Positions 601 to 11,760 of a stretch of DNA of 11,760 nucleotides are shown here, piece after piece. Under the pieces are notes generated by a model. It saw only the letters and a list, made by a program, of their open reading frames with translations. It was not told the origin of the DNA and searched no databases. Every line of letters begins with the position of its first letter. The stretch's first letter is position 1. The translations under genes were made by a program, and so were the position numbers. The stretch is from a virus: UHGV virus genome UHGV-1590541. One strand, given 5' to 3'.

Positions 601-1587
601 CTATTTAAGAATAAAACGGTATTTACTGTCAGGAGTGCTTTGCTGATCAAGTAGCAGTGAACGACATGGAGCAGTCAAAACCCGAGCATAACTACCATCA
701 GGGCTTATGTTAATGTAACAAACCTTGCCCTTAACACTATAATTTTCGGGGACGGATGCCTTTGCTGATACAGTAAATTTAAGGGTATGCCAGCCCGTTT
801 TTTGCTTGTAGCTTGAAACCGAATGGAAATCATCTGAGTACTTATTTAACCCTGGAAACATGCTGCGCAGTGCGGGGATGGAATCTTCTATTATTTTATC
901 GTTGGTTTTAATGTTAAAAACGCTGGTTTCAGTAGAAGCTACTGCTTTGGCATTTCCCCATTTACCAGCGAACACAATCATTCCCACGAAAAATATTGCT
1001 ACAAGAACTAACACTCCCCCCAACACTACTACATGAGGCTTCCGGCTTCTGGTTGGTACAGTTGCGACTGATTTTGCACCGCTTTCCGATGGAGGTGATA
1101 GAGTTTTACTCTCATCACGAATATTCAGCAGATCATCAAAATAACCAAACACAGCCTGCAACTGCTCTTTGTCTAGGCCTTTAAGATGGGTTGTACCGAA
1201 ATGCTTCAGACAGTATCTGTCACGGTCAAGACGATACCCAGGGTCAGTAAGCGCCATTATTTTGCTGACCAGAAGATTACAGTCCTTCATATTCTGGATC
1301 TGTTGTGCATATCTCTGAAGGATCTCAACCGCACCATGATAATCAGCCGCAGTCATTTCATTAACTGTTTTGGTATTAAGTTTCGTGTGGATCGTCATCC
1401 ATAGCTCGCGCTTACTTTCCCCCAGATCAACCAATTCATCCATCAATCTGTGTAAATCGCGTTTTTGCAGCAACGAAATTGGTTGCTGGGCCGAAGGAAG
1501 TATGTCAGCAGAATAGTTATGAATGGTAACATCACCGCTGACAACGTTACCCACATCCCCGTTAACTGTTTGCTTCTCTTTACTCAT
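601..1587 (-). CDS. Single-pass membrane protein of unknown function (328 aa), co-transcribed with the prophage repressor
   Basis: ATG at 1587 overlaps the repressor stop (ATGA, 1584-1587). One predicted TM helix at about aa 185-207 (VVVLGGVLVLVAIFFVGMIVFAG) preceded by basic RSRKPH, implying N-in topology. The C-terminal domain of about 120 aa carries two Cys. No family recognised by eye. Lower GC than the phage core. Confidence 0.8.
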   Translation of the reverse strand: MSKEKQTVNGDVGNVVSGDVTIHNYSADILPSAQQPISLLQKRDLHRLMDELVDLGESKRELWMTIHTKLNTKTVNEMTAADYHGAVEILQRYAQQIQNMKDCNLLVSKIMALTDPGYRLDRDRYCLKHFGTTHLKGLDKEQLQAVFGYFDDLLNIRDESKTLSPPSESGAKSVATVPTRSRKPHVVVLGGVLVLVAIFFVGMIVFAGKWGNAKAVASTETSVFNIKTNDKIIEDSIPALRSMFPGLNKYSDDFHSVSSYKQKTGWHTLKFTVSAKASVPENYSVKGKVCYINISPDGSYARVLTAPCRSLLLDQQSTPDSKYRFILK

Positions 1588-2009
1588 CTTCTCTTGGTAT
1601 TTTTGTTCATTATTCCACCTGTTCCTATGGTTACGTTACCTTTGATAACATTCCCCAGAACATCTCCATGAATAACCTGTTCCGCCCGTTCTCTGGAGGA
1701 GCCAGTAGTCAAGGCCGACAAAACTGAACCTTTGACCTGTAATGGTGCCTGCCGGTAGTGCTGCAGTAACTCCATTTCATCACGTGATAAAGTTATACCT
1801 GATGACTCCCCGGTAAGAATGAACTGTACATTGGCCCCAATTCTTGCAAAGGCTGCAAGTAACTCACCTCCGGGAACAGCAACCCCTCGTTCATATTTCC
1901 CCCACATTTCTCTTGAAACGCCACAAAGGGCTGCTACTTCAGCCTGCTTGAGTGATAACCGCGAACGCTCAGCTTTGAACCGCGACGCGCAAAGAGAATC
2001 AAAATTCAC
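1584..2009 (-). CDS. Prophage repressor, XRE/cI-type helix-turn-helix (start probably GTG at 2009; longest ORF reaches ATG 2045)
   Basis: HTH segment LSLKQAEVAALCGVSREMWGKYERG, typical of XRE-family repressors. Divergent from the Ner-like gene. GTG at 2009 has a GAGG SD 5 nt upstream, whereas ATG 2045 has none and would leave only 50 bp for divergent promoters. C-terminal tail has a GDV/GNV repeat. Confidence 0.8.
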   Translation of the reverse strand: MNFDSLCASRFKAERSRLSLKQAEVAALCGVSREMWGKYERGVAVPGGELLAAFARIGANVQFILTGESSGITLSRDEMELLQHYRQAPLQVKGSVLSALTTGSSRERAEQVIHGDVLGNVIKGNVTIGTGGIMNKNTKRR

Positions 2010-2095
2010 ATAAACCTCATTGACAATGAGAACAATAGTTCTCATAATCTATCACATATAAAACAAACATCATTGCATCAACAAAGGAGACAACA
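2010..2095. promoter_or_regulatory. Divergent immunity control region: candidate operators plus rightward sigma70 early promoter
   Basis: Perfect palindrome CTCATTG-A-CAATGAG (2016-2030) overlapping a second dyad GAGAAC-AATA-GTTCTC (2028-2043). TTGACA (2020-2025), 17-bp spacer, CATAAT (2043-2048) facing the Ner-like gene. CACATAT motif at 2053-2059. Confidence 0.5.
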
Positions 2096-2655: not shown

Positions 2656-3570
2656 ATGGGACGCACCAAATCACCCGTTAACACTGAACTGAATGTTGAG
2701 GTTCCGCTGTCAGATAACATCAATGTCAATTTGAACGCTATGACACAGCATCGCATGGAAATTATGCAGCAGTTTGGTGATGGACTGCCTTATGAACGTG
2801 ATCGCATTGTTCACGAAGCACGTTTTTATATGGCGCAGAGTGCTGAATCTATGCTGGAAGCGGGTAAGCGGCTGATCATCTTAAAAGAAAATGAGCCACA
2901 CGGTGATTTTACAAACATTTTAGAAAATGAACTCGGACTTGCACCACAAGTTGCTCGCCGCATGATGCAAGCCAGTATGAAGTTTTTGGGAGAAGGTGAT
3001 GAGCCAACAAAACGCTCAACGTTGAGCGTTTTGGGGAAAGCCAAACTGTACGACCTGATGGTTCTGGATAATGAAGAACTTGATGAATTGGCCGACGGCG
3101 GCACAGTTGCCGGCCTGACGCTTGACGACGTTGATCGCATGTCAGTACGTGAATTGCGTCAGGCCCTGCGCGAAGCGCGCGAAACCAACGCAGCACAACA
3201 GCGCGTACTCGCCGACAAAAATGAAAAAATAGATTCACTCTCCACCAGACTGGAGAAGAAATCCCGTATTCAGCCGCCTGAGCCTGATGAGGAGGTTAAG
3301 AAGCTGCGGGCGGAAGTAACAGCATTAGCGGTTGAGGCGGAATCTGCTATCGCCGTCCGACTGTCCAGCGCTTTTGAGACGCTGTGCGCATATTGTGCTG
3401 AAAACATGATTGATACCCCCAGAGACTTCATGGCAGGCCTGGTCTGTCAACTGGAAAGCACAGCGCGTAGCCTGCGCTCCACATTTGACCTGCCGGACGA
3501 GCCAACAGGCAATGCAGCGCCTTCATGGCTGACTGAGCCGACGCCACAGATTAACGGGCTGGAGGCATAA
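2656..3570 (+). CDS. Hypothetical early protein (304 aa), acidic with predicted coiled-coil segments
   Basis: AAGGAG RBS. Stop at 3570 lies 3 nt before the transposase start. No domain recognised with confidence (possibly a DUF3102-like phage protein, from memory only). Confidence 0.8.
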   Translation: MGRTKSPVNTELNVEVPLSDNINVNLNAMTQHRMEIMQQFGDGLPYERDRIVHEARFYMAQSAESMLEAGKRLIILKENEPHGDFTNILENELGLAPQVARRMMQASMKFLGEGDEPTKRSTLSVLGKAKLYDLMVLDNEELDELADGGTVAGLTLDDVDRMSVRELRQALREARETNAAQQRVLADKNEKIDSLSTRLEKKSRIQPPEPDEEVKKLRAEVTALAVEAESAIAVRLSSAFETLCAYCAENMIDTPRDFMAGLVCQLESTARSLRSTFDLPDEPTGNAAPSWLTEPTPQINGLEA

Positions 3571-3573
3571 CCA

Positions 3574-5343
3574 ATGAATGCTGCCCTGACTGAACGACTG
3601 GTTTATGTCGCCCGCGCGGCACGTGACGCGGGGCATGGTAAACGCGGTGCAATATACGACGCTGCCTGTGCTGAACTTGGCATGTCCCGCGCCACTCTGC
3701 TGCGCAGGCTGAAGGAGGTCTCTGTGACTGATAAACGCAAAAAACGCGCCGATGCCGGGCGCAGCGCCCTGACCCGCGACGAAGCCGCGCTGATATCTGC
3801 CACACTGCGTGAGGCCACCCGCAAGAACGGTAAGCGTCTCTATTCCATCGCAGATGCAGTGGAAACCCTGCGGGCTAACGGCTTTATCACCGCAGGCAGA
3901 ACAGATGAAACCACCAGTGAGTTTTTCCCGTTGTCTGAAGATGCCATCAGCCGTGCTCTGCGTAACTATGGCCTGCCCCCGGAACAACTGGATGCCCCTG
4001 CACCACATACCGAAGTGGCCAGTCTGCATCCCAATCATGTCTGGCAGATTGACGCCTCACTCTGCACGCTTTACTACCTGAGCAATGGACATAAAGGGCT
4101 GCAGGTGATGGACAGCGCGAAGTTCTACAAGAACAAGCCCGCTAACCTTGCCCGTATCGCCAGTGACCGCGTGTGGAGTTACGAGATTACCGACCATGCC
4201 AGCGGCTGGATTTACGTTGAGTATGTGACGGGCGCGGAATCAGGTGAGAACCTGTGTTCTGTGCTTATCAACGCCATGCAGGAGCGTGGCGGCGCAGACG
4301 TGCTGCACGGCGTGCCGAAAATACTCTATCTCGACCCCGGCTCGGCAAACACCGCGGGTATGACGAAAAACATGTGCCGCTCACTGGGCATCGACCTGAT
4401 AGCGCACAAGCCGCATAACGCCCGCGCCACCGGACAGGTGGAAAAGGCGCGTGACATTATCGAACGCAAGCTGGAGCCGGGTCTGAAGTTCCGGCCGGTT
4501 CACGGTCTGGAAGAACTCAACGCGCTGGCCGCGAAATGGCGCAGCCACTTTAACGCCACGGCTGTTCACAGCCGCCACGGTAAAACCCGCACGGATATCT
4601 GGCTGAAGATTACTGCTGAGCAGCTGAAAAAAGCGCCTTCCGTTGAGGTATGTCGTGAACTGGCTGTGGCGGCACCAGAACTCCGCAAAGTCACGCCAAA
4701 ACTTCGTGTCTCGTTCCGGGGCACTGAATTTGACGTATCAACGGTACCGGGCGTACTGGTTGGTGAAAAACTGATGATTACCCGTAACCCATGGCGCAGC
4801 GATGTGGCACAGGTGGTTCTGACCGGTGAGGACGGCCACGAGACGTTCTTCCTGGTCGAAGAGGTCAGAAAGAACGAGTTTGGCTTTGCTGAAGGCGCGG
4901 CGGTATTTGGCGAAAGTTACAAAGCCCTGCCGGAAACCCCGGCACAGATGGCGGCAAAAGAAACCGAAGCGCTGGTTACCGGTACAGACAACGCCGCAGA
5001 TGCAGCCGCCGCACGCAAGGCGAAGGCGCTGCCGTTCGGCGGGCGGCTTGACCCGTATAAACATATCGACGACACCACACTTCCGGCCTATATGCCGAAG
5101 CGTGGTCAGGCCTCTGACGTACGCGGGCCGCGCACTGAACAACGTCCCATGACTCATGTGGAGGCCGCGAAAGCCCTGCGCGATAAGTTCAGCGCCGACG
5201 GCCTTACCTGGACGCCGGAACATTACCGCCAGTTAACGGCACAGTACCCGGACGGCGTACCGGAAGCCGCACTGGATGAAGTCATGGCCACGCTGACCAC
5301 ACCGGCCCGCAGCAGTGTTATCAGCATTGTTAACGGCAACTGA
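3574..5343 (+). CDS. DDE transposase (retroviral-integrase/rve-like catalytic core), functional analogue of Mu A (589 aa)
   Basis: GGAGG RBS. N-terminal HTH-like region, then candidate catalytic residues in HVWQIDASL, KILYLDPGSANTA and GQVEKARDIIERKLE, matching D..D..E spacing of rve-type transposases. Followed directly by an AAA+ ATPase, as in transposable phages. Confidence 0.9.
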   Translation: MNAALTERLVYVARAARDAGHGKRGAIYDAACAELGMSRATLLRRLKEVSVTDKRKKRADAGRSALTRDEAALISATLREATRKNGKRLYSIADAVETLRANGFITAGRTDETTSEFFPLSEDAISRALRNYGLPPEQLDAPAPHTEVASLHPNHVWQIDASLCTLYYLSNGHKGLQVMDSAKFYKNKPANLARIASDRVWSYEITDHASGWIYVEYVTGAESGENLCSVLINAMQERGGADVLHGVPKILYLDPGSANTAGMTKNMCRSLGIDLIAHKPHNARATGQVEKARDIIERKLEPGLKFRPVHGLEELNALAAKWRSHFNATAVHSRHGKTRTDIWLKITAEQLKKAPSVEVCRELAVAAPELRKVTPKLRVSFRGTEFDVSTVPGVLVGEKLMITRNPWRSDVAQVVLTGEDGHETFFLVEEVRKNEFGFAEGAAVFGESYKALPETPAQMAAKETEALVTGTDNAADAAAARKAKALPFGGRLDPYKHIDDTTLPAYMPKRGQASDVRGPRTEQRPMTHVEAAKALRDKFSADGLTWTPEHYRQLTAQYPDGVPEAALDEVMATLTTPARSSVISIVNGN

Positions 5344-5353
5344 GGAGGGAAAC

Positions 5354-6520
5354 ATGCTGGTACTGAAGCAGCAACTGAAAGAGGCCCGTATTCCACAGGC
5401 GGTGGTGGCGAGAGCTGTCGATGTTTCTGAGGCCACGCTGGCCCAGATTGTGAATCATAACGCGTGGCCCCGCACCAGCCCCGGAGAAGTGCGCCGGCGT
5501 CTTGCGTCCTGGCTGGAAAGTCAGGGGATTGATACAACGAAGAGTTTTGATGCTGTACAGGGCGCGGCCACGCCCCGTACAGCGGGTACCACAGATAAAA
5601 CGAGCCTCAGTGAGGAAGAGAATATGTTACTCAAAAAACAGGTGTTATTTCCAGCAACCAAAAAAGCGTTTGGTCTTTTCCGTGACCCGTTCGCCGACGA
5701 AGCCATGCAGGGTTCTGATGATGTGTTCACCACCCCGGACATTCGCTACGTGCGTGAGGCGCTGTACCAGACAGCCCGTCATGGTGGGTTTATGGCCGTC
5801 ATCGGTGAGTCCGGTGCGGGTAAATCCACGCTGCGCCGCGACCTGACTGAACGTATCAACCGCGAGAATGCGCCGGTAATTGTTATCGAGCCATACATCA
5901 TCGCTATGGAAGACAACGATGTGAAAGGGAAAACCCTGAAGGCAGCAGCTATTGCCGAAGCCATTATCAGTACCATCGCACCACTGGAAAGCATCAGACG
6001 CAGTCAGGACGCCCGTTTTCGCCAGTTGCATCGCGTCCTGAAAGACAGCAGCCAGGCGGGGTTCAGCCACGTTCTGGTGATTGAGGAGGCCCACAGTCTG
6101 CCCATTCCGACACTGAAACACCTCAAACGCTTTTTTGAGCTGGAGTCCGGTTTCAAAAAACTGCTGTCCATCGTGCTGATTGGCCAGCCGGAACTGGCGA
6201 CAAAACTGTCTGAACGCAATATGGAAGTCCGTGAAGTCGTTCAGCGCTGTGAGGTGGTCGAACTTCTGCCTCTGGACAATAACCTTGAAGAATTTCTGAC
6301 GTTCAAACTGCAACGGGCCGGTAAACAGCTGACGGACATTATGGACGCCGGTGCAGTGGATGCCATACGTGCCCGCCTGAGCAATCCGGGAAGTCACCGT
6401 AAAAATATGGTCAGCCTGCTGTATCCGCTGGCCGTCAGTAACCTGGTAATAGCCGCCATGAATCTGGCCGCTGAAATCGGGGTTCCACAGGTCAACGCTG
6501 ACGTTGTCAAAGGGGTTTAA
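5354..6520 (+). CDS. AAA+ ATPase transposition helper protein (MuB / TniB-like), N-terminal HTH (longest ORF starts at 5315)
   Basis: Walker A GESGAGKST and Walker B-like VLVIEEAH. GAGGAGGG RBS immediately upstream of ATG 5354, 11 nt after the transposase stop. Confidence 0.9.
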   Translation: MLVLKQQLKEARIPQAVVARAVDVSEATLAQIVNHNAWPRTSPGEVRRRLASWLESQGIDTTKSFDAVQGAATPRTAGTTDKTSLSEEENMLLKKQVLFPATKKAFGLFRDPFADEAMQGSDDVFTTPDIRYVREALYQTARHGGFMAVIGESGAGKSTLRRDLTERINRENAPVIVIEPYIIAMEDNDVKGKTLKAAAIAEAIISTIAPLESIRRSQDARFRQLHRVLKDSSQAGFSHVLVIEEAHSLPIPTLKHLKRFFELESGFKKLLSIVLIGQPELATKLSERNMEVREVVQRCEVVELLPLDNNLEEFLTFKLQRAGKQLTDIMDAGAVDAIRARLSNPGSHRKNMVSLLYPLAVSNLVIAAMNLAAEIGVPQVNADVVKGV

Positions 6521-6819: not shown

Positions 6820-7350
6820 ATGGCAAAAAGTACAAAAGGTGCAAAACGTATCAAGGCCGCAGCAGCACTCTGGGTGCCGGGGACACGTGAAGAGGTCATT
6901 GAGGGAATCAGACTACTCGGTGACGCACAACGTGAACTGGTCAGGGCTGAAACAGAAATGAATGACGCCATTGGCGATATCACCGCACGTTATGCCCCGC
7001 TCACCGAGAGCCTGAAAAAACGCATGGCCGAACTGCAGTCCGGTATTCAGACATGGTGTGAGGCACACCGTGATGAACTGACCGGCAACGGGAAGGTGAA
7101 GTTCGCTAACCTCACCACCGGCGAGGTGCAGTGGCGAAACCGTCCGCCATCAGTCAGTATCCGTGGGGCGGATAATGTTATTGAATTACTGAGACGTCTG
7201 GGGCTTGAGCGCTTTATTCGTGTAAAAGAGGAAATAAATAAAGACGCTATCCTGAATGAAAAAGAGGCCGTGAAAAATATTCCCGGTATTTCCATTAAAA
7301 GCGACATTGAGGATTTTTCAATAATTCCTTTTGAGCAGGATGTGCAGTAA
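6820..7350 (+). CDS. gam: Host-nuclease inhibitor protein Gam (Mu Gam family, Ku-like DNA-end-binding)
   Basis: 176 aa. Long collinear matches to Mu Gam as I remember it: MAK..KRIK.AAA..VP at the N-terminus, ETEMNDAI, WCEA.RDELT, RPPSVSIRG, LERLGL.RFIR.K.EINKEAIL and a C-terminal IEDFSIIPFEQ. Confidence 0.95.
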   Translation: MAKSTKGAKRIKAAAALWVPGTREEVIEGIRLLGDAQRELVRAETEMNDAIGDITARYAPLTESLKKRMAELQSGIQTWCEAHRDELTGNGKVKFANLTTGEVQWRNRPPSVSIRGADNVIELLRRLGLERFIRVKEEINKDAILNEKEAVKNIPGISIKSDIEDFSIIPFEQDVQ

Positions 7351-7447: not shown

Positions 7448-7642
7448 ATGATATTTAAATGTATTCAGTGCGAGAGGGATATAACAGCCCTGCGTTTTCA
7501 CAGCGCCATCGCCGTGATGTCCGGTAAATACCACATCCCTGCGGTACGCGTCACCCTGGTCTGCCCGTACTGCAGCCAGCATTTTTCGGCAGACGTGCCC
7601 GTCATGGAATTCTCCCGCCCTGACAGGGAGGACTCGCAATGA
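7448..7642 (+). CDS. Small zinc-ribbon protein (64 aa, CxxC...CxxC)
   Basis: Cys pairs at C5/C8 and C39/C42. Its stop overlaps the next gene start (ATGA at 7639-7642). Preceded by a 97-bp AT-rich spacer after gam. Confidence 0.65.
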   Translation: MIFKCIQCERDITALRFHSAIAVMSGKYHIPAVRVTLVCPYCSQHFSADVPVMEFSRPDREDSQ

Positions 7643-7911
7643 TTACCCCACAGGAAGCACGACAGCGCACCCGAACCCTTGTTGAACACTATGTCAACGA
7701 GTGTGAATGCCGCGACCTCACCGATGTGAAGCACGTCCTGACGGCGCTAATCAGCATGACCGCTCAAGCCATTGTGGCGACCAACGGAAAGGCGGCTGCC
7801 CTGCAGGTACTGGTGAACACACTAACCCACACGGCAGCGCATGAGGTGCCGTACCGGATGGAAACCACTGCAGAAGGCGGCCTGCACATCACCGTCAGCC
7901 GGAAGCACTGA
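7639..7911 (+). CDS. Hypothetical small early protein (90 aa)
   Basis: Translationally coupled to the upstream gene (ATGA overlap). No recognisable domain. Confidence 0.6.
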   Translation: MITPQEARQRTRTLVEHYVNECECRDLTDVKHVLTALISMTAQAIVATNGKAAALQVLVNTLTHTAAHEVPYRMETTAEGGLHITVSRKH

Positions 7912-7920
7912 GGGCGCGGC

Positions 7921-8217
7921 ATGACACGGAACACCATACTCACCCGCACCGCCCTCTACCGTCTGGCCCTGCAGCGTTTCGGGCCGGACGCACAGGCCCT
8001 GAAACTGACAGAAGAGGCCGCTGAACTGGCGGCCAGTGCTGCCCGCAATCTGAACGGACAGGGCAGCGAAAGCGACCTCGCGGCAGAGCTGGCAGACGTG
8101 GAAATCATGACAGAGCAATTGCGCCTTCAGGGGATGGACCGGCTGATTGACTTCCACAAACAGAAAAAACTGGAACGTCTGGCTGCACGACTGGGCGTGA
8201 TTTACACGAACGAGTAA
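7921..8217 (+). CDS. MazG-like all-alpha nucleoside triphosphate pyrophosphohydrolase domain protein (98 aa), tentative
   Basis: GAGGG RBS. Contains EExxE (LTEEAAELA) followed about 30 residues later by ExxD (AELADVEIM), the metal-binding signature of MazG-like NTP-PPases. Confidence 0.55.
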   Translation: MTRNTILTRTALYRLALQRFGPDAQALKLTEEAAELAASAARNLNGQGSESDLAAELADVEIMTEQLRLQGMDRLIDFHKQKKLERLAARLGVIYTNE

Positions 8218-8231
8218 CCGGGAGGCATTCA

Positions 8232-8447
8232 ATGGCTGACATACTCAGGGAAATCACCGCATGGATACTGATTCTTACTGGCCTGGCGACATGCCTCAGT
8301 GCGGGGGCAGCCCTGGCTGCCCTGCTGATGCACATAACAACACAGTGGTTATGGGAAAAGCTTAAAGCAGCATACAGCCTGAAAGAGCTGTCCGACGCTG
8401 TCCGGGCATGGAAACGGCAGAAAAATACCGGAGATACAGAACAATGA
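8232..8447 (+). CDS. Small membrane protein (71 aa, one TM helix)
   Basis: GGGAGG RBS. Hydrophobic stretch ITAWILILTGLATCLSAGAALAALLM. Stop overlaps the next start (ATGA at 8444-8447). Confidence 0.6.
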   Translation: MADILREITAWILILTGLATCLSAGAALAALLMHITTQWLWEKLKAAYSLKELSDAVRAWKRQKNTGDTEQ

Positions 8448-9127
8448 CAGACCAGAATAAACACATTGAGAAACTGAAAAAGTTGCTGGCGCTGGCCGCA
8501 TCCGGCAACCCGCACGAGGCCGCTCTGGCACTGCGCCGAGCCCGTAAACTGATGGATGTTCACGGCATCACACATTCCGACATTGCTATGAGTGATATTG
8601 ATGAAACCATCAGTCACTACTGGCCGACAGGCAGTCTCCGTCCACCGCGCTACATGCTGGGCCTGATGAACATCATCCGCGAGGTATTTGGTGTTAACTC
8701 CATCATTCACCCCGGCACGCATCCGTCTGTGGGGTTCTACGGCAACCGGGAACGTGCGGCACTGGCTGCATACACCTGGGAAGTGCTGGCCCGTCAGCTG
8801 AAAAAGGCGCGTCAGCAGTATATCAGTGCACAGAACAAAAGAATAAAAACCGCCACCCGCACCAGCCGTGGAGACCAGTTTGCCGAAGGCTGGGTGCTGG
8901 CCGTTATCAGTGAAATACAGTCCTTTGCCCTGACCGATGATGAGCGTGAACTGATGCAGCAGTGGCTGGAACATAAATACCCGCAGACGCAAACCACCAG
9001 GGCGCGTAAACCGGGAAGAAGCCGCAATGGCGACGCCTCGCGCTATGCGGGGTTTCGTGAAGGGCAGAACGTCAGACTGCACCGCCCGGTCAGTGGGCAG
9101 GAACAACAGAAACTGGAGGCCAGATGA
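8444..9127 (+). CDS. DUF2786-like phage protein (227 aa; longest ORF starts at 8408)
   Basis: N-terminal KHIEKLKKLLALAASGNPHEAALALRRARKLM matches the DUF2786 signature as I remember it. ATG 8444 is coupled to the upstream stop. Confidence 0.7.
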   Translation: MTDQNKHIEKLKKLLALAASGNPHEAALALRRARKLMDVHGITHSDIAMSDIDETISHYWPTGSLRPPRYMLGLMNIIREVFGVNSIIHPGTHPSVGFYGNRERAALAAYTWEVLARQLKKARQQYISAQNKRIKTATRTSRGDQFAEGWVLAVISEIQSFALTDDERELMQQWLEHKYPQTQTTRARKPGRSRNGDASRYAGFREGQNVRLHRPVSGQEQQKLEAR

Positions 9128-9551: not shown

Positions 9552-10001
9552 ATGCAGAAAAAACGCCTGATACAGCTTATCCATATTGCCCGTAATGAAC
9601 TGGGTATGGATGAAGACACCTACCGCCAGATGTTACAGGGGCTGACCGGTAAAGCCTCAACCAAAGGAATGGATACCACACAACTAAACTGCGTGCTGGA
9701 ATCCATGAAAAAGAAAGGCTTTCGCGTTAAACCAGCCAGAAAAGCCAGCTCCGGTTTACCGCTGGATAACCATCCGCAGTCCAGGAAAATTCGTGCGCTA
9801 TGGCTTGAAATGGCTGCTGCCGGCATTGTTCGTGACCGTTCAGAAAATGCATTAGCGAGGTGGATCAAGCGGGAAACGGGCATCAGCGCCCTGCGCTGGC
9901 TCAGTACTGAACAGGCAAGCAGTGTTATTGAGAAACTGAAGAAGTGGCAGCGCAGAGCTGCGGGAGTCAAACATGAGCGACCTGAATCAGTTTCGAAGTA
10001 A
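9552..10001 (+). CDS. gemA: GemA-like regulatory protein (Mu gp16 family, DUF1018)
   Basis: AGGAG RBS. LIQLIHIARNELGMDEDTYRQML..LTGKAS and RKIRALWLEMAAAGIV resemble the Mu gp16/GemA family. Sits immediately upstream of and overlapping mor, as in Mu. Confidence 0.8.
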   Translation: MQKKRLIQLIHIARNELGMDEDTYRQMLQGLTGKASTKGMDTTQLNCVLESMKKKGFRVKPARKASSGLPLDNHPQSRKIRALWLEMAAAGIVRDRSENALARWIKRETGISALRWLSTEQASSVIEKLKKWQRRAAGVKHERPESVSK

Positions 10002-10362
10002 GGGGCCGGAACTCCTGGTGGAACTGGCACAGCATACCTCTGAGACCGTTCGCGAGATTATTGATATTGAGCCCGAAGTTGCCGACCAGATTGGTCAGGC
10101 CGTCGCGAACCGAATGATGCAGGTCTGGGGCGGGCAAAACGTTTATTTCCCGATGGGCATGGTATGGAAGGTCAGTCAGCGCGACCGGGAAATCTTCAGG
10201 GAGTTTAACGGACGCAACCACCACGAACTGGCCCGCAAATTTGGTGTTTCGCTTCAGTGGGTCTACAGCGTGGTTAAGCGGGTAAGAAAAGAAGAACTGG
10301 ATCGGATGCAGGGCAAGCTATTTGCTGATGAACCCGATGCAGATACGGAGAAAAAAGAGTAA
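9973..10362 (+). CDS. mor: Mor-family transcription activator (middle operon regulator)
   Basis: 129 aa, same length as Mu Mor. C-terminal half (VWGGQNVYFPMG...FREFNGRNHHELARKFGVSLQWVYSVVKRVRK) aligns closely with the Mu Mor HTH region as I remember it. Confidence 0.9.
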   Translation: MSDLNQFRSKGPELLVELAQHTSETVREIIDIEPEVADQIGQAVANRMMQVWGGQNVYFPMGMVWKVSQRDREIFREFNGRNHHELARKFGVSLQWVYSVVKRVRKEELDRMQGKLFADEPDADTEKKE

Positions 10363-10449: not shown

Positions 10450-10525
<76 letters not shown>

Positions 10526-10776
10526 CCAAGTCCCCGTGTCAAAAAGTCATCTGTGTAAGATTCCAATCATACATATGGACTCAGATTGGCCTGTGTCCGT
10601 GCTTCCTAAAGGAATTCACAGATTCAGTCCTAATCATGATGACACATTAGCGAAGCTATGCCATGTCAGATACAGGTTCACTTAGTCGCGGTCTTACCAG
10701 TCTGGCCTTTAATACTCGTTAATCCTTAGCAATCAGTAGGTTGGTTTTATTTTTCAACAGACAGAAGTAGTTTCAT

Positions 10777-11760
10777 TTACATATATGCAGCTCCCATCAC
10801 TTCTTCTGGTGAAATCTCTTTATCGTTGGTTAGCAATACCCAGAGCACTCTGGCATTTTTGTTGTTCAGCGCTACGGTGGCAACATTTTTATTCCGCCGC
10901 GAGACTGGTCTGCCCAGCCAGCTTTCCTGGACCTGTCTGCCCTTTCTGGCGTTTGACACTGTCTTCGCACCATGGAACAGTAGCGTTCTGATATAGACAT
11001 CGTCCCGTTTACTGATAGACCCCAGCGTGTTTTTACCTACGCTGAAGCACTGTCGGGGAACCAGTCCAAGCCATGCAGCAAGCTGACGCCGGTTTTTGAA
11101 GCCGATACTACCCGGTGCTGACAATTGCAGTGGTGGTAAGAATAGCAATCCCCGAAATGGTGGCAATTTTCCTGCACAGTTCGTCGTTCCCGACGTGTTC
11201 GTTGCTAACGGCTTCTATGGTTTCAATGTGTACGCTCAGTTGTTTCACATTTTCATTAGAGATAGGACGACAGCTGTCTGAACGGCATTGTTAAACAGTT
11301 TTCCGCGTCTTCAAGCAGGGCAGGGACATGACGACTGATCGCTACAGTGTCGGGCGGGAGAACGATGCCAAATTCAGCCAGTAATCCTCTGATCTGGTTT
11401 ATCTGCGCAGTCCTTGATTTAACAAACCCCGTCAGGGCACGATGAAAAGACAGTAATGACTACTGCTCAGGCGTCTTGATGCTGACAAACCGCATATTAG
11501 GTCGGGTAACGGCTTCACAGATGGCCTCGGCAGCAGCCATATCATTCTTGTTTGTTTTCACATATGGCTTTACAAATCGCGGGCATTAGTCTGACATTAT
11601 GCCCCTAAGTAGACAGCATTCTCACTAATGACGCGCTCCGGCGCAGACCTCCATCCCAATCCGACAGGAAGACATATTCGCGAAGAATACGGGCATCAGG
11701 GAACGTTTAATCCGTTTTCTGAGCTTAGATTTTTCTGTTCCTACCCAGACCGTGGATTTG
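10777..11760 (-). pseudogene. IS110-family (DEDD) transposase, decayed: multiple in-frame stops and frameshifts; N-terminus beyond window end
   Basis: Minus-strand translation gives segments in three frames that read collinearly like an IS110-family transposase: FFANMSSCRIGMEVCAGARH, PYVKTNKNDMAAAEAICEAVTRPNMRFVSIKTPEQ, IRGLLAEFGIV, ISGIAILTTTAIV, RRQLAAWLGLVPRQ...ISKRDDVYIRTLLFHGAKTV, VATVALNNKNARVLW. In-frame stops at 11622-11627 (TAG TGA), 11586-11588 (TAA) and 11460-11462 (TAG); frame changes near 11256 and near 11110-11125. Confidence 0.8.

Follow-up and report, generated by a model that had tools for sequence, protein, structure and literature searches.

The all-alpha NTP pyrophosphohydrolases form homo-oligomers, dimers or tetramers, whose assembly completes the active site. 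Canonical MazG of Escherichia coli (b2781, 263 amino acids; 3cra) consists of two tandem domains of the PF03819 family and is encoded in the relA-mazEF-mazG locus, whereas smaller members of known structure carry a single domain: S. solfataricus SSO3215/SSO12199 (1vmg), a Bacillus-conserved MazG (5ie9), B. subtilis YpjD (2gta) and the integron protein iMazG (2q5z and 2q73). Related folds serve other ends in DCTPP1/RS21-C6 (7mu5, 2a3q and 2oie), a eukaryotic dCTP pyrophosphatase, and in HisE, the biosynthetic enzyme PRA-PH (1yvw and 3c90). Phage enzymes of the MazG type have been tied both to tuning of the dNTP pool and to the neutralization of alarmone-dependent abortive infection, and the two published precedents point in different directions. 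The preferred substrates of cyanophage S-PM2 MazG are dGTP and dCTP, and the enzyme shows neither binding nor cleavage of (p)ppGpp (PMC6850273). Atd1 of Pectobacterium phage PcCB7V, a MazG-like protein, is reported to dephosphorylate ppGpp with a Km of about 50 µM, to lower the signal of an alarmone reporter and to save cells exposed to the toxicity of TIR-STING and retron-TIR (10.1101/2022.06.09.495361).

Here we analyse a stretch of 11,760 nucleotides from the virus genome UHGV-1590541 (the window), in which an early-operon gene encodes a protein of 98 amino acids. We read this gene as a minimal, single-domain member of the all-alpha NTP pyrophosphohydrolase superfamily (MazG/HisE/DCTPP1 type), a reading to which we assign a probability of about 0.8. 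The protein is not a canonical two-domain MazG: it has one domain, scores below the PF03819 threshold and is encoded in a prophage early operon instead of the relA-mazEF-mazG locus. Its sequence similarity to the small solved MazG proteins is borderline (E 0.008–0.4), and those proteins are cellular or integron-borne, whereas the 98-residue protein is the product of a phage early gene. The gene also stands apart in biological context from DCTPP1 and from HisE, lying outside any histidine-biosynthesis setting, and its product is no detectable relative of Atd1.

The open reading frame (ORF) was read in the window at positions 7921–8217 of the plus strand, running from ATG to TAA over 98 codons, and was annotated as the coding sequence of a 98-residue, single-domain MazG-type (all-alpha) NTP pyrophosphohydrolase-like protein; the original prediction had its coordinates exactly right. 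The translated product is MTRNTILTRTALYRLALQRFGPDAQALKLTEEAAELAASAARNLNGQGSESDLAAELADVEIMTEQLRLQGMDRLIDFHKQKKLERLAARLGVIYTNE. A Shine-Dalgarno-like GAGGG, seen by direct reading of the sequence at 7910–7914 (plus strand), is separated from the ATG by 6 nt and shares bases with the stop codon (7909–7911) of the preceding ORF (7639–7911), and the downstream ORF starts only 15 nt past the stop of the 98-residue gene, behind GGAGG. These overlaps and short distances indicate tight packing within an operon. Near the gene, the plus strand showed no promoter- or terminator-like site exceeding chance, as expected inside a long early operon. Seven pairwise comparisons with orthologues of related viral contigs, with values taken only where dS was unsaturated, gave dN/dS ratios of 0.09–0.21; the ORF is a real gene under purifying selection. 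An antisense ORF of 136 amino acids (7822–8232, minus strand) was considered and set aside as a shadow ORF, as both the dN/dS pattern and all homologues favour the plus-strand frame.

Strong family evidence comes from a match to PHROG 2245, annotated 'nucleoside triphosphate pyrophosphohydrolase' (E 2.8e-34, 119.8 bits), in which residues 1–97, the full length of the protein, align with profile positions 113–211 of 218. Weaker matches were obtained to three further PHROGs annotated NTP-PPase or MazG-like. The protein is a direct profile member of PHROG 2245, and the NTP pyrophosphohydrolase annotation is also carried by relatives in phages of Clostridium, Cellulophaga and Halobacterium, for example Clostridium phage phiCT19406B, Cellulophaga phage phi10:1 and Halobacterium phage phiH. 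The PHROG 2245 annotation derives solely from homology, and our literature search found no experimental work on the family. Within the enterobacterial Mu-like subgroup the label 'hypothetical protein' is used almost everywhere: two records, one from JGI and a recent one from PGAP, call the enterobacterial protein an NTP pyrophosphohydrolase, against hundreds that label it 'hypothetical'. An exhaustive HMM search of 1.84 billion representatives, using a profile of 20 close homologues, returned 10,432 sequences at E ≤ 1e-3, of which 1,885 reached E ≤ 1e-10; most have 85–110 amino acids. By sequence, the protein belongs to a very large family of proteins of roughly 90–100 residues, whose members are spread across unrelated phage types. 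The ten longest relatives contained no informative domain fusions, and their extra length probably reflects mis-called starts or run-on ORFs.

Scored against curated models, the protein itself reached no Pfam or NCBIfam cut-off, obtaining 14.5 bits for Pfam PRA-PH (cut-off 21.3) and 14.3 bits for NCBIfam hisE (cut-off 42.7). When 66 diverse relatives were compared with Pfam at E ≤ 0.01, 15 matched MazG (PF03819; best E 2.2e-5), four PRA-PH (PF01503) and three MazG-like (PF12643); an NCBIfam scan of the same relatives produced scattered weak matches only. Searches of PDB sequences with the single protein or a narrow profile found only chance helical matches (IWS1, KaiA and an antiholin). With the family profile, 5ie9 was reached at E 0.008, its TEEMGEL and EELGD aligning with the two acidic motifs, and of six natural proteins below E 0.5, five were of the MazG type (5ie9, 2q73, 2q5z, 2gta and 1vmg). 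The best PDB sequence match by E-value was 3zta, an unrelated helical domain, and designed bundles scored too. Comparison of the family profile with E. coli MazG by hhalign gave no match, either to the single sequence or to a 15-sequence profile, a template whose members were at least 79% identical (Neff 1.5); with so little diversity in the template, the missing match does not speak against homology.

Structure prediction points to the same superfamily. AlphaFold 2 models built from 98 diverse sequences reached a best pLDDT of 94.7 (pTM 0.80), with all five models above 93 and in agreement, and place helices at residues 9–44, 50–68 and 73–90; an earlier model had split the first of these at residues 20–22. 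A run supplied with 20 close homologues only also predicted an all-alpha protein (pLDDT 84), its remaining four models being poor. The predicted structure contains the all-alpha core of four helices. Foldseek returned, in order, human DCTPP1 (probability 0.99), 1vmg (0.95), 5ie9, HisN2, AF1178, YpjD and E. coli MazG. Identity to DCTPP1 or HisE in the structural alignments was only 20–28%, and the fold-search statistics are modest, helical bundles being prone to yield many mediocre fold matches. With high confidence, the protein is predicted to fold as a helical bundle, for which solved MazG-type enzymes are the best matches. The MazG-like identity first proposed by eye is therefore supported by the PHROG 2245 match, by weak but consistent PRA-PH and MazG signals in Pfam and by the motif alignment to 5ie9; profile and structure searches, which had been suggested as its check, spoke for an all-alpha NTP pyrophosphatase like MazG, though the protein itself missed the curated cut-offs.

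The same proposal had drawn on an EExxE...ExxD arrangement at MazG-like spacing, and this too is borne out. The first acidic motif, EEAAE (E31-E32-A-A-E35; 8011–8025, plus strand), falls in helix 2 and the second, ELAD (E56-L-A-D59; 8086–8097, plus strand), in helix 3; conservation and alignment to 5ie9 mark both as putative sources of Mg2+ ligands. They are separated by 20 residues, and the range quoted for MazG-type proteins is 12–28. Taken by itself the motif is weak and not diagnostic, because Gam of the same window also matches by chance. The pattern EExxE(12-28)ExxD is found in two of the 81 six-frame window ORFs of at least 60 amino acids, one of them Gam (EEVIE...EMND, from 6889), and arises in 0.21% of 200,000 composition-preserving shuffles of the 98-residue protein. 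What lifts the motif beyond chance is its conservation, the strict form being kept in 95 of 98 diverse relatives. Two alignments, one of 66 members (mean column identity 36%) and one of 98 (21%), show E31, D59 and Q66 as invariant and E32, E35 and E56 as at least 90% conserved. A16, G21, Q25, L36, A58, I62, M63, K83, R86 and L87 also reach at least 90% in one or both alignments, as does K80 in the 66-member alignment, and the consensus of the relatives at the second motif reads AEEIADVEIM. Judged from these alignments, E31, E32, E35, E56 and D59 are among the most conserved positions of the family and match the residues that define the MazG-type metal site.

The gene belongs to the early operon of a transposable E. 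coli prophage of the BcepMu type. Its predicted placement in an early region was right, as it sits between the transposase, ATPase and Gam genes on one side and GemA and Mor on the other. Over 1.3 kb, the window shares 98.7% identity with Escherichia phage PhiKM, which is classified under Bcepmuvirus. An HTH repressor (1584–2045, minus strand) is followed on its right by a Ner-like HTH protein, an IclR-type HTH protein and a DUF3102 protein, in that order. Beyond these lie an rve-domain transposase of 589 amino acids (3574–5343, plus strand), which matches the rve integrase core only, an AAA ATPase of the MuB/ExeA type (5315–6520, plus strand), assigned to the ExeA family in RefSeq, a small protein of unassigned function and Gam (6820–7350, plus strand). 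The 589-residue rve-only transposase and the ExeA-family ATPase fit BcepMu-type phages more than Mu proper. Two small plus-strand ORFs intervene before the 98-residue gene. One, at 7448–7642 (PHROG 3401, no assigned function), carries a pair of CxxC motifs (CIQC...CPYC), suggestive of a zinc ribbon; the other, at 7639–7911 (PHROG 3691, no assigned function), is the immediate upstream neighbour. Both are variably present among related Mu-like phages. Directly downstream lies a small membrane protein, followed by a protein of 239 amino acids with DUF2786 and DUF7168 (8408–9127, plus strand; PHROG 421), two small proteins of unassigned function, GemA (9552–10001) and Mor (9973–10362). The DUF2786/DUF7168 protein often follows the MazG-like gene and was undetected in about 30 of 80 related loci (about 25 once loci cut by contig ends are set aside), so the two genes are not obligately linked.

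The gene is present in 621 of 5426 complete E. coli genomes (about 11%), and the flanking MuB-like and GemA-Mor segments in 637 and 640 of them, respectively, indicating that it is nearly always retained in this prophage lineage. In all 80 related IMG/VR loci it is found between the transposase and ATPase, with or without Gam, and GemA/Mor. The slot is unchanged even where the protein is 45–50% identical and GemA about 35%, while the small neighbours come and go. One phage-protein library already holds the annotation. Our result is a sound functional annotation and not a discovery; what is notable is the persistence of the gene in a fixed slot of the Mu-like early operon together with its prevalence in E. 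coli. Occupancy of this slot in many Mu-like phages suggests usefulness at the onset of lytic growth.

By analogy with characterized members of the superfamily, the most likely activity is Mg2+-dependent hydrolysis of a (d)NTP to a (d)NMP and PPi. The gene would be transcribed as part of the BcepMu-type early operon, and its product would assemble into a dimer or tetramer. Residues E31, E32, E35, E56 and D59 would hold the Mg2+ ions that bind the nucleotide triphosphate. K80, K83 and R86 of the last helix probably take part, as plausible phosphate contacts, and F20, a tryptophan in the family consensus, is a plausible base-stacking residue. Cleavage would then occur between the alpha and beta phosphates, releasing a nucleoside monophosphate and pyrophosphate. 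With low confidence, we propose that synthesis of the protein begins early, upon induction or infection, and that its role is to condition the pool of nucleotides on which replicative transposition draws, most likely by destroying non-canonical or harmful (d)NTPs. Among its targets could be nucleotides that host defences produce or enrich; dUTP or dITP generated by deaminases, chain terminators and alarmones are examples. The physiological substrate class (non-canonical dNTPs, alarmones or defence-made nucleotides) is not readable from sequence. The E. coli host already has MazG, MutT, Dut and RdgB, which would make a plain house-cleaning role redundant.

Among the possible roles we tentatively rank conditioning of the (d)NTP pool first, at somewhat less than even odds, with alarmone hydrolysis well below it and other defence-related nucleotides sharing in the remaining probability. 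A dNTP-pool enzyme comparable to cyanophage MazG, iMazG, DCTPP1 or MazZ would hydrolyse particular canonical or modified dNTPs and so bias or sanitize the pool for replicative transposition; this is a sub-case of the pyrophosphohydrolase reading with a defined substrate class. It draws on the closest solved structures, which include DCTPP1 (Foldseek 0.99), iMazG (2q5z and 2q73) and the small archaeal and Bacillus MazG proteins, on the occurrence of relatives in unrelated phage types, as expected of a general nucleotide-metabolism gene, and on the preference of cyanophage MazG for dGTP and dCTP (PMC6850273). Structural matches, however, fail to discriminate substrates, and Mu-like phages use the host replisome within an intact host chromosome, where the host supplies sanitizing enzymes of its own. 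Base-modification partner genes (PurZ-type, hydroxymethylase and the like) are not visible in the window, and neither PurZ nor DatZ, the partners of MazZ in Z-genome phages, occurs among its ORFs. The missed Pfam and NCBIfam thresholds could instead be read as the mark of a small, non-enzymatic helical protein (a regulator, inhibitor or structural mimic) that resembles MazG by convergence or has lost its activity. The many mediocre fold matches of helical bundles, the non-MazG domain 3zta as top PDB sequence match with designed bundles scoring as well, and the chance occurrence of the motif in Gam would all suit such a protein; we regard this explanation as improbable. More improbable still is a phosphoribosyl-ATP pyrophosphatase acting in histidine biosynthesis: the scores of about 14 bits lie far from the PRA-PH and hisE cut-offs (21.3 and 42.7), the gene sits in a phage early operon without his genes, and its relatives match MazG more often than PRA-PH (15 versus 4).

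We give roughly one chance in five to a dedicated counter-defence enzyme, which would destroy an antiviral or stress nucleotide of host origin; candidates are (p)ppGpp or (p)ppApp, ddhNTPs of the viperin type and deaminase-made dUTP or dITP. Its Atd1-like form is slightly less probable again. In that form, hydrolysis of (p)ppGpp early in the lytic cycle would block the stringent response and the alarmone-triggered activation of a toxin (MazEF) that lies behind TIR-type abortive infection. Like Atd1, the protein is phage-borne, of about 90 residues and built from one MazG-type domain; superfamily and acidic motifs (EExxE and ExxD) are common to both, and a similar anti-defence role is conceivable. 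Its gene, moreover, occupies a variable accessory part of the Mu-like early operon near Gam, which is a host-nuclease inhibitor. The reported dephosphorylation of ppGpp and rescue from TIR toxicity by Atd1 provide a precedent (10.1101/2022.06.09.495361), but for the cyanophage enzyme, whose preferred substrates are dGTP and dCTP, neither binding nor hydrolysis of (p)ppGpp was seen (PMC6850273), and the shared motif does not predict substrate choice in this superfamily. We took QQG33500.1 to be Atd1 on the strength of its annotation and because it lies two genes away from the nucleotidyltransferase QQG33502.1; it is the only MazG/PRA-PH-like ORF near that PcCB7V gene. This presumed Atd1 ORF (3104–3364, minus strand, of the PcCB7V MW367417 segment; GTG start) is annotated 'phosphoribosyl-ATP pyrophosphatase' and encodes 86 amino acids with EEVEE...EMSD, in which the motifs are 16 residues apart, against 20 in the 98-residue protein. 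PcCB7V also encodes a 'GTP pyrophosphokinase' (QQG33411.1) and NAD-salvage genes. Neither the 98-residue protein nor its family profile showed detectable similarity to QQG33500.1 (BLASTP E 0.23; hhalign probability 0.3%), so that any Atd1-like role would belong to a separate lineage. The settings differ as well: Atd1 adjoins a phage nucleotidyltransferase in a lytic phage of 146 kb, whereas the gene described here lies in a Mu-like early operon, with no nucleotidyltransferase among the window ORFs and no minimal nucleotidyltransferase or anti-defence island among its neighbours (Gam, small proteins, the DUF2786/DUF7168 protein, GemA and Mor). Our literature search found nothing specific on a MazG-like gene in Mu- or BcepMu-type phages, or on MazG acting against viperin products.

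If the pyrophosphohydrolase assignment is correct, a prophage nucleotide pyrophosphatase that is almost always called 'hypothetical' is present in several hundred E. coli genomes, clinical strains of the ST131 type among them. The identity of its substrate would show whether dNTP tuning or the neutralization of abortive infection applies in transposable phages. Were the counter-defence explanation to hold, the family would constitute a widespread second lineage of Atd1-like anti-defence pyrophosphatases, distinct in sequence and present in about 11% of sequenced E. coli, and the significance of the gene would rise if the enzyme targets a defence-made nucleotide.

The right end of the window holds a phage-host junction. 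Related phage copies all cease to match 162 nt past the mor stop, at about 10,525, and the remainder of the window (10,525–11,760) is E. coli chromosomal DNA. This DNA, whose annotation is an IS110-family transposase, occurs in 4149 of 5426 genomes. Within it, an ORF of 129 amino acids on the minus strand (10,777–11,166) matches Transposase_20, the C-terminal domain only of IS110/IS116/IS902 transposases (E 8.5e-11), and looks like a transposase fragment or a frameshifted copy. An identical phage-host junction was found in 613 genomes, nearly every carrier of the prophage. Such a shared junction is odd for a phage that supposedly transposes at random; it suggests that the phage strongly prefers certain targets or that the insertion is old and has been inherited vertically.
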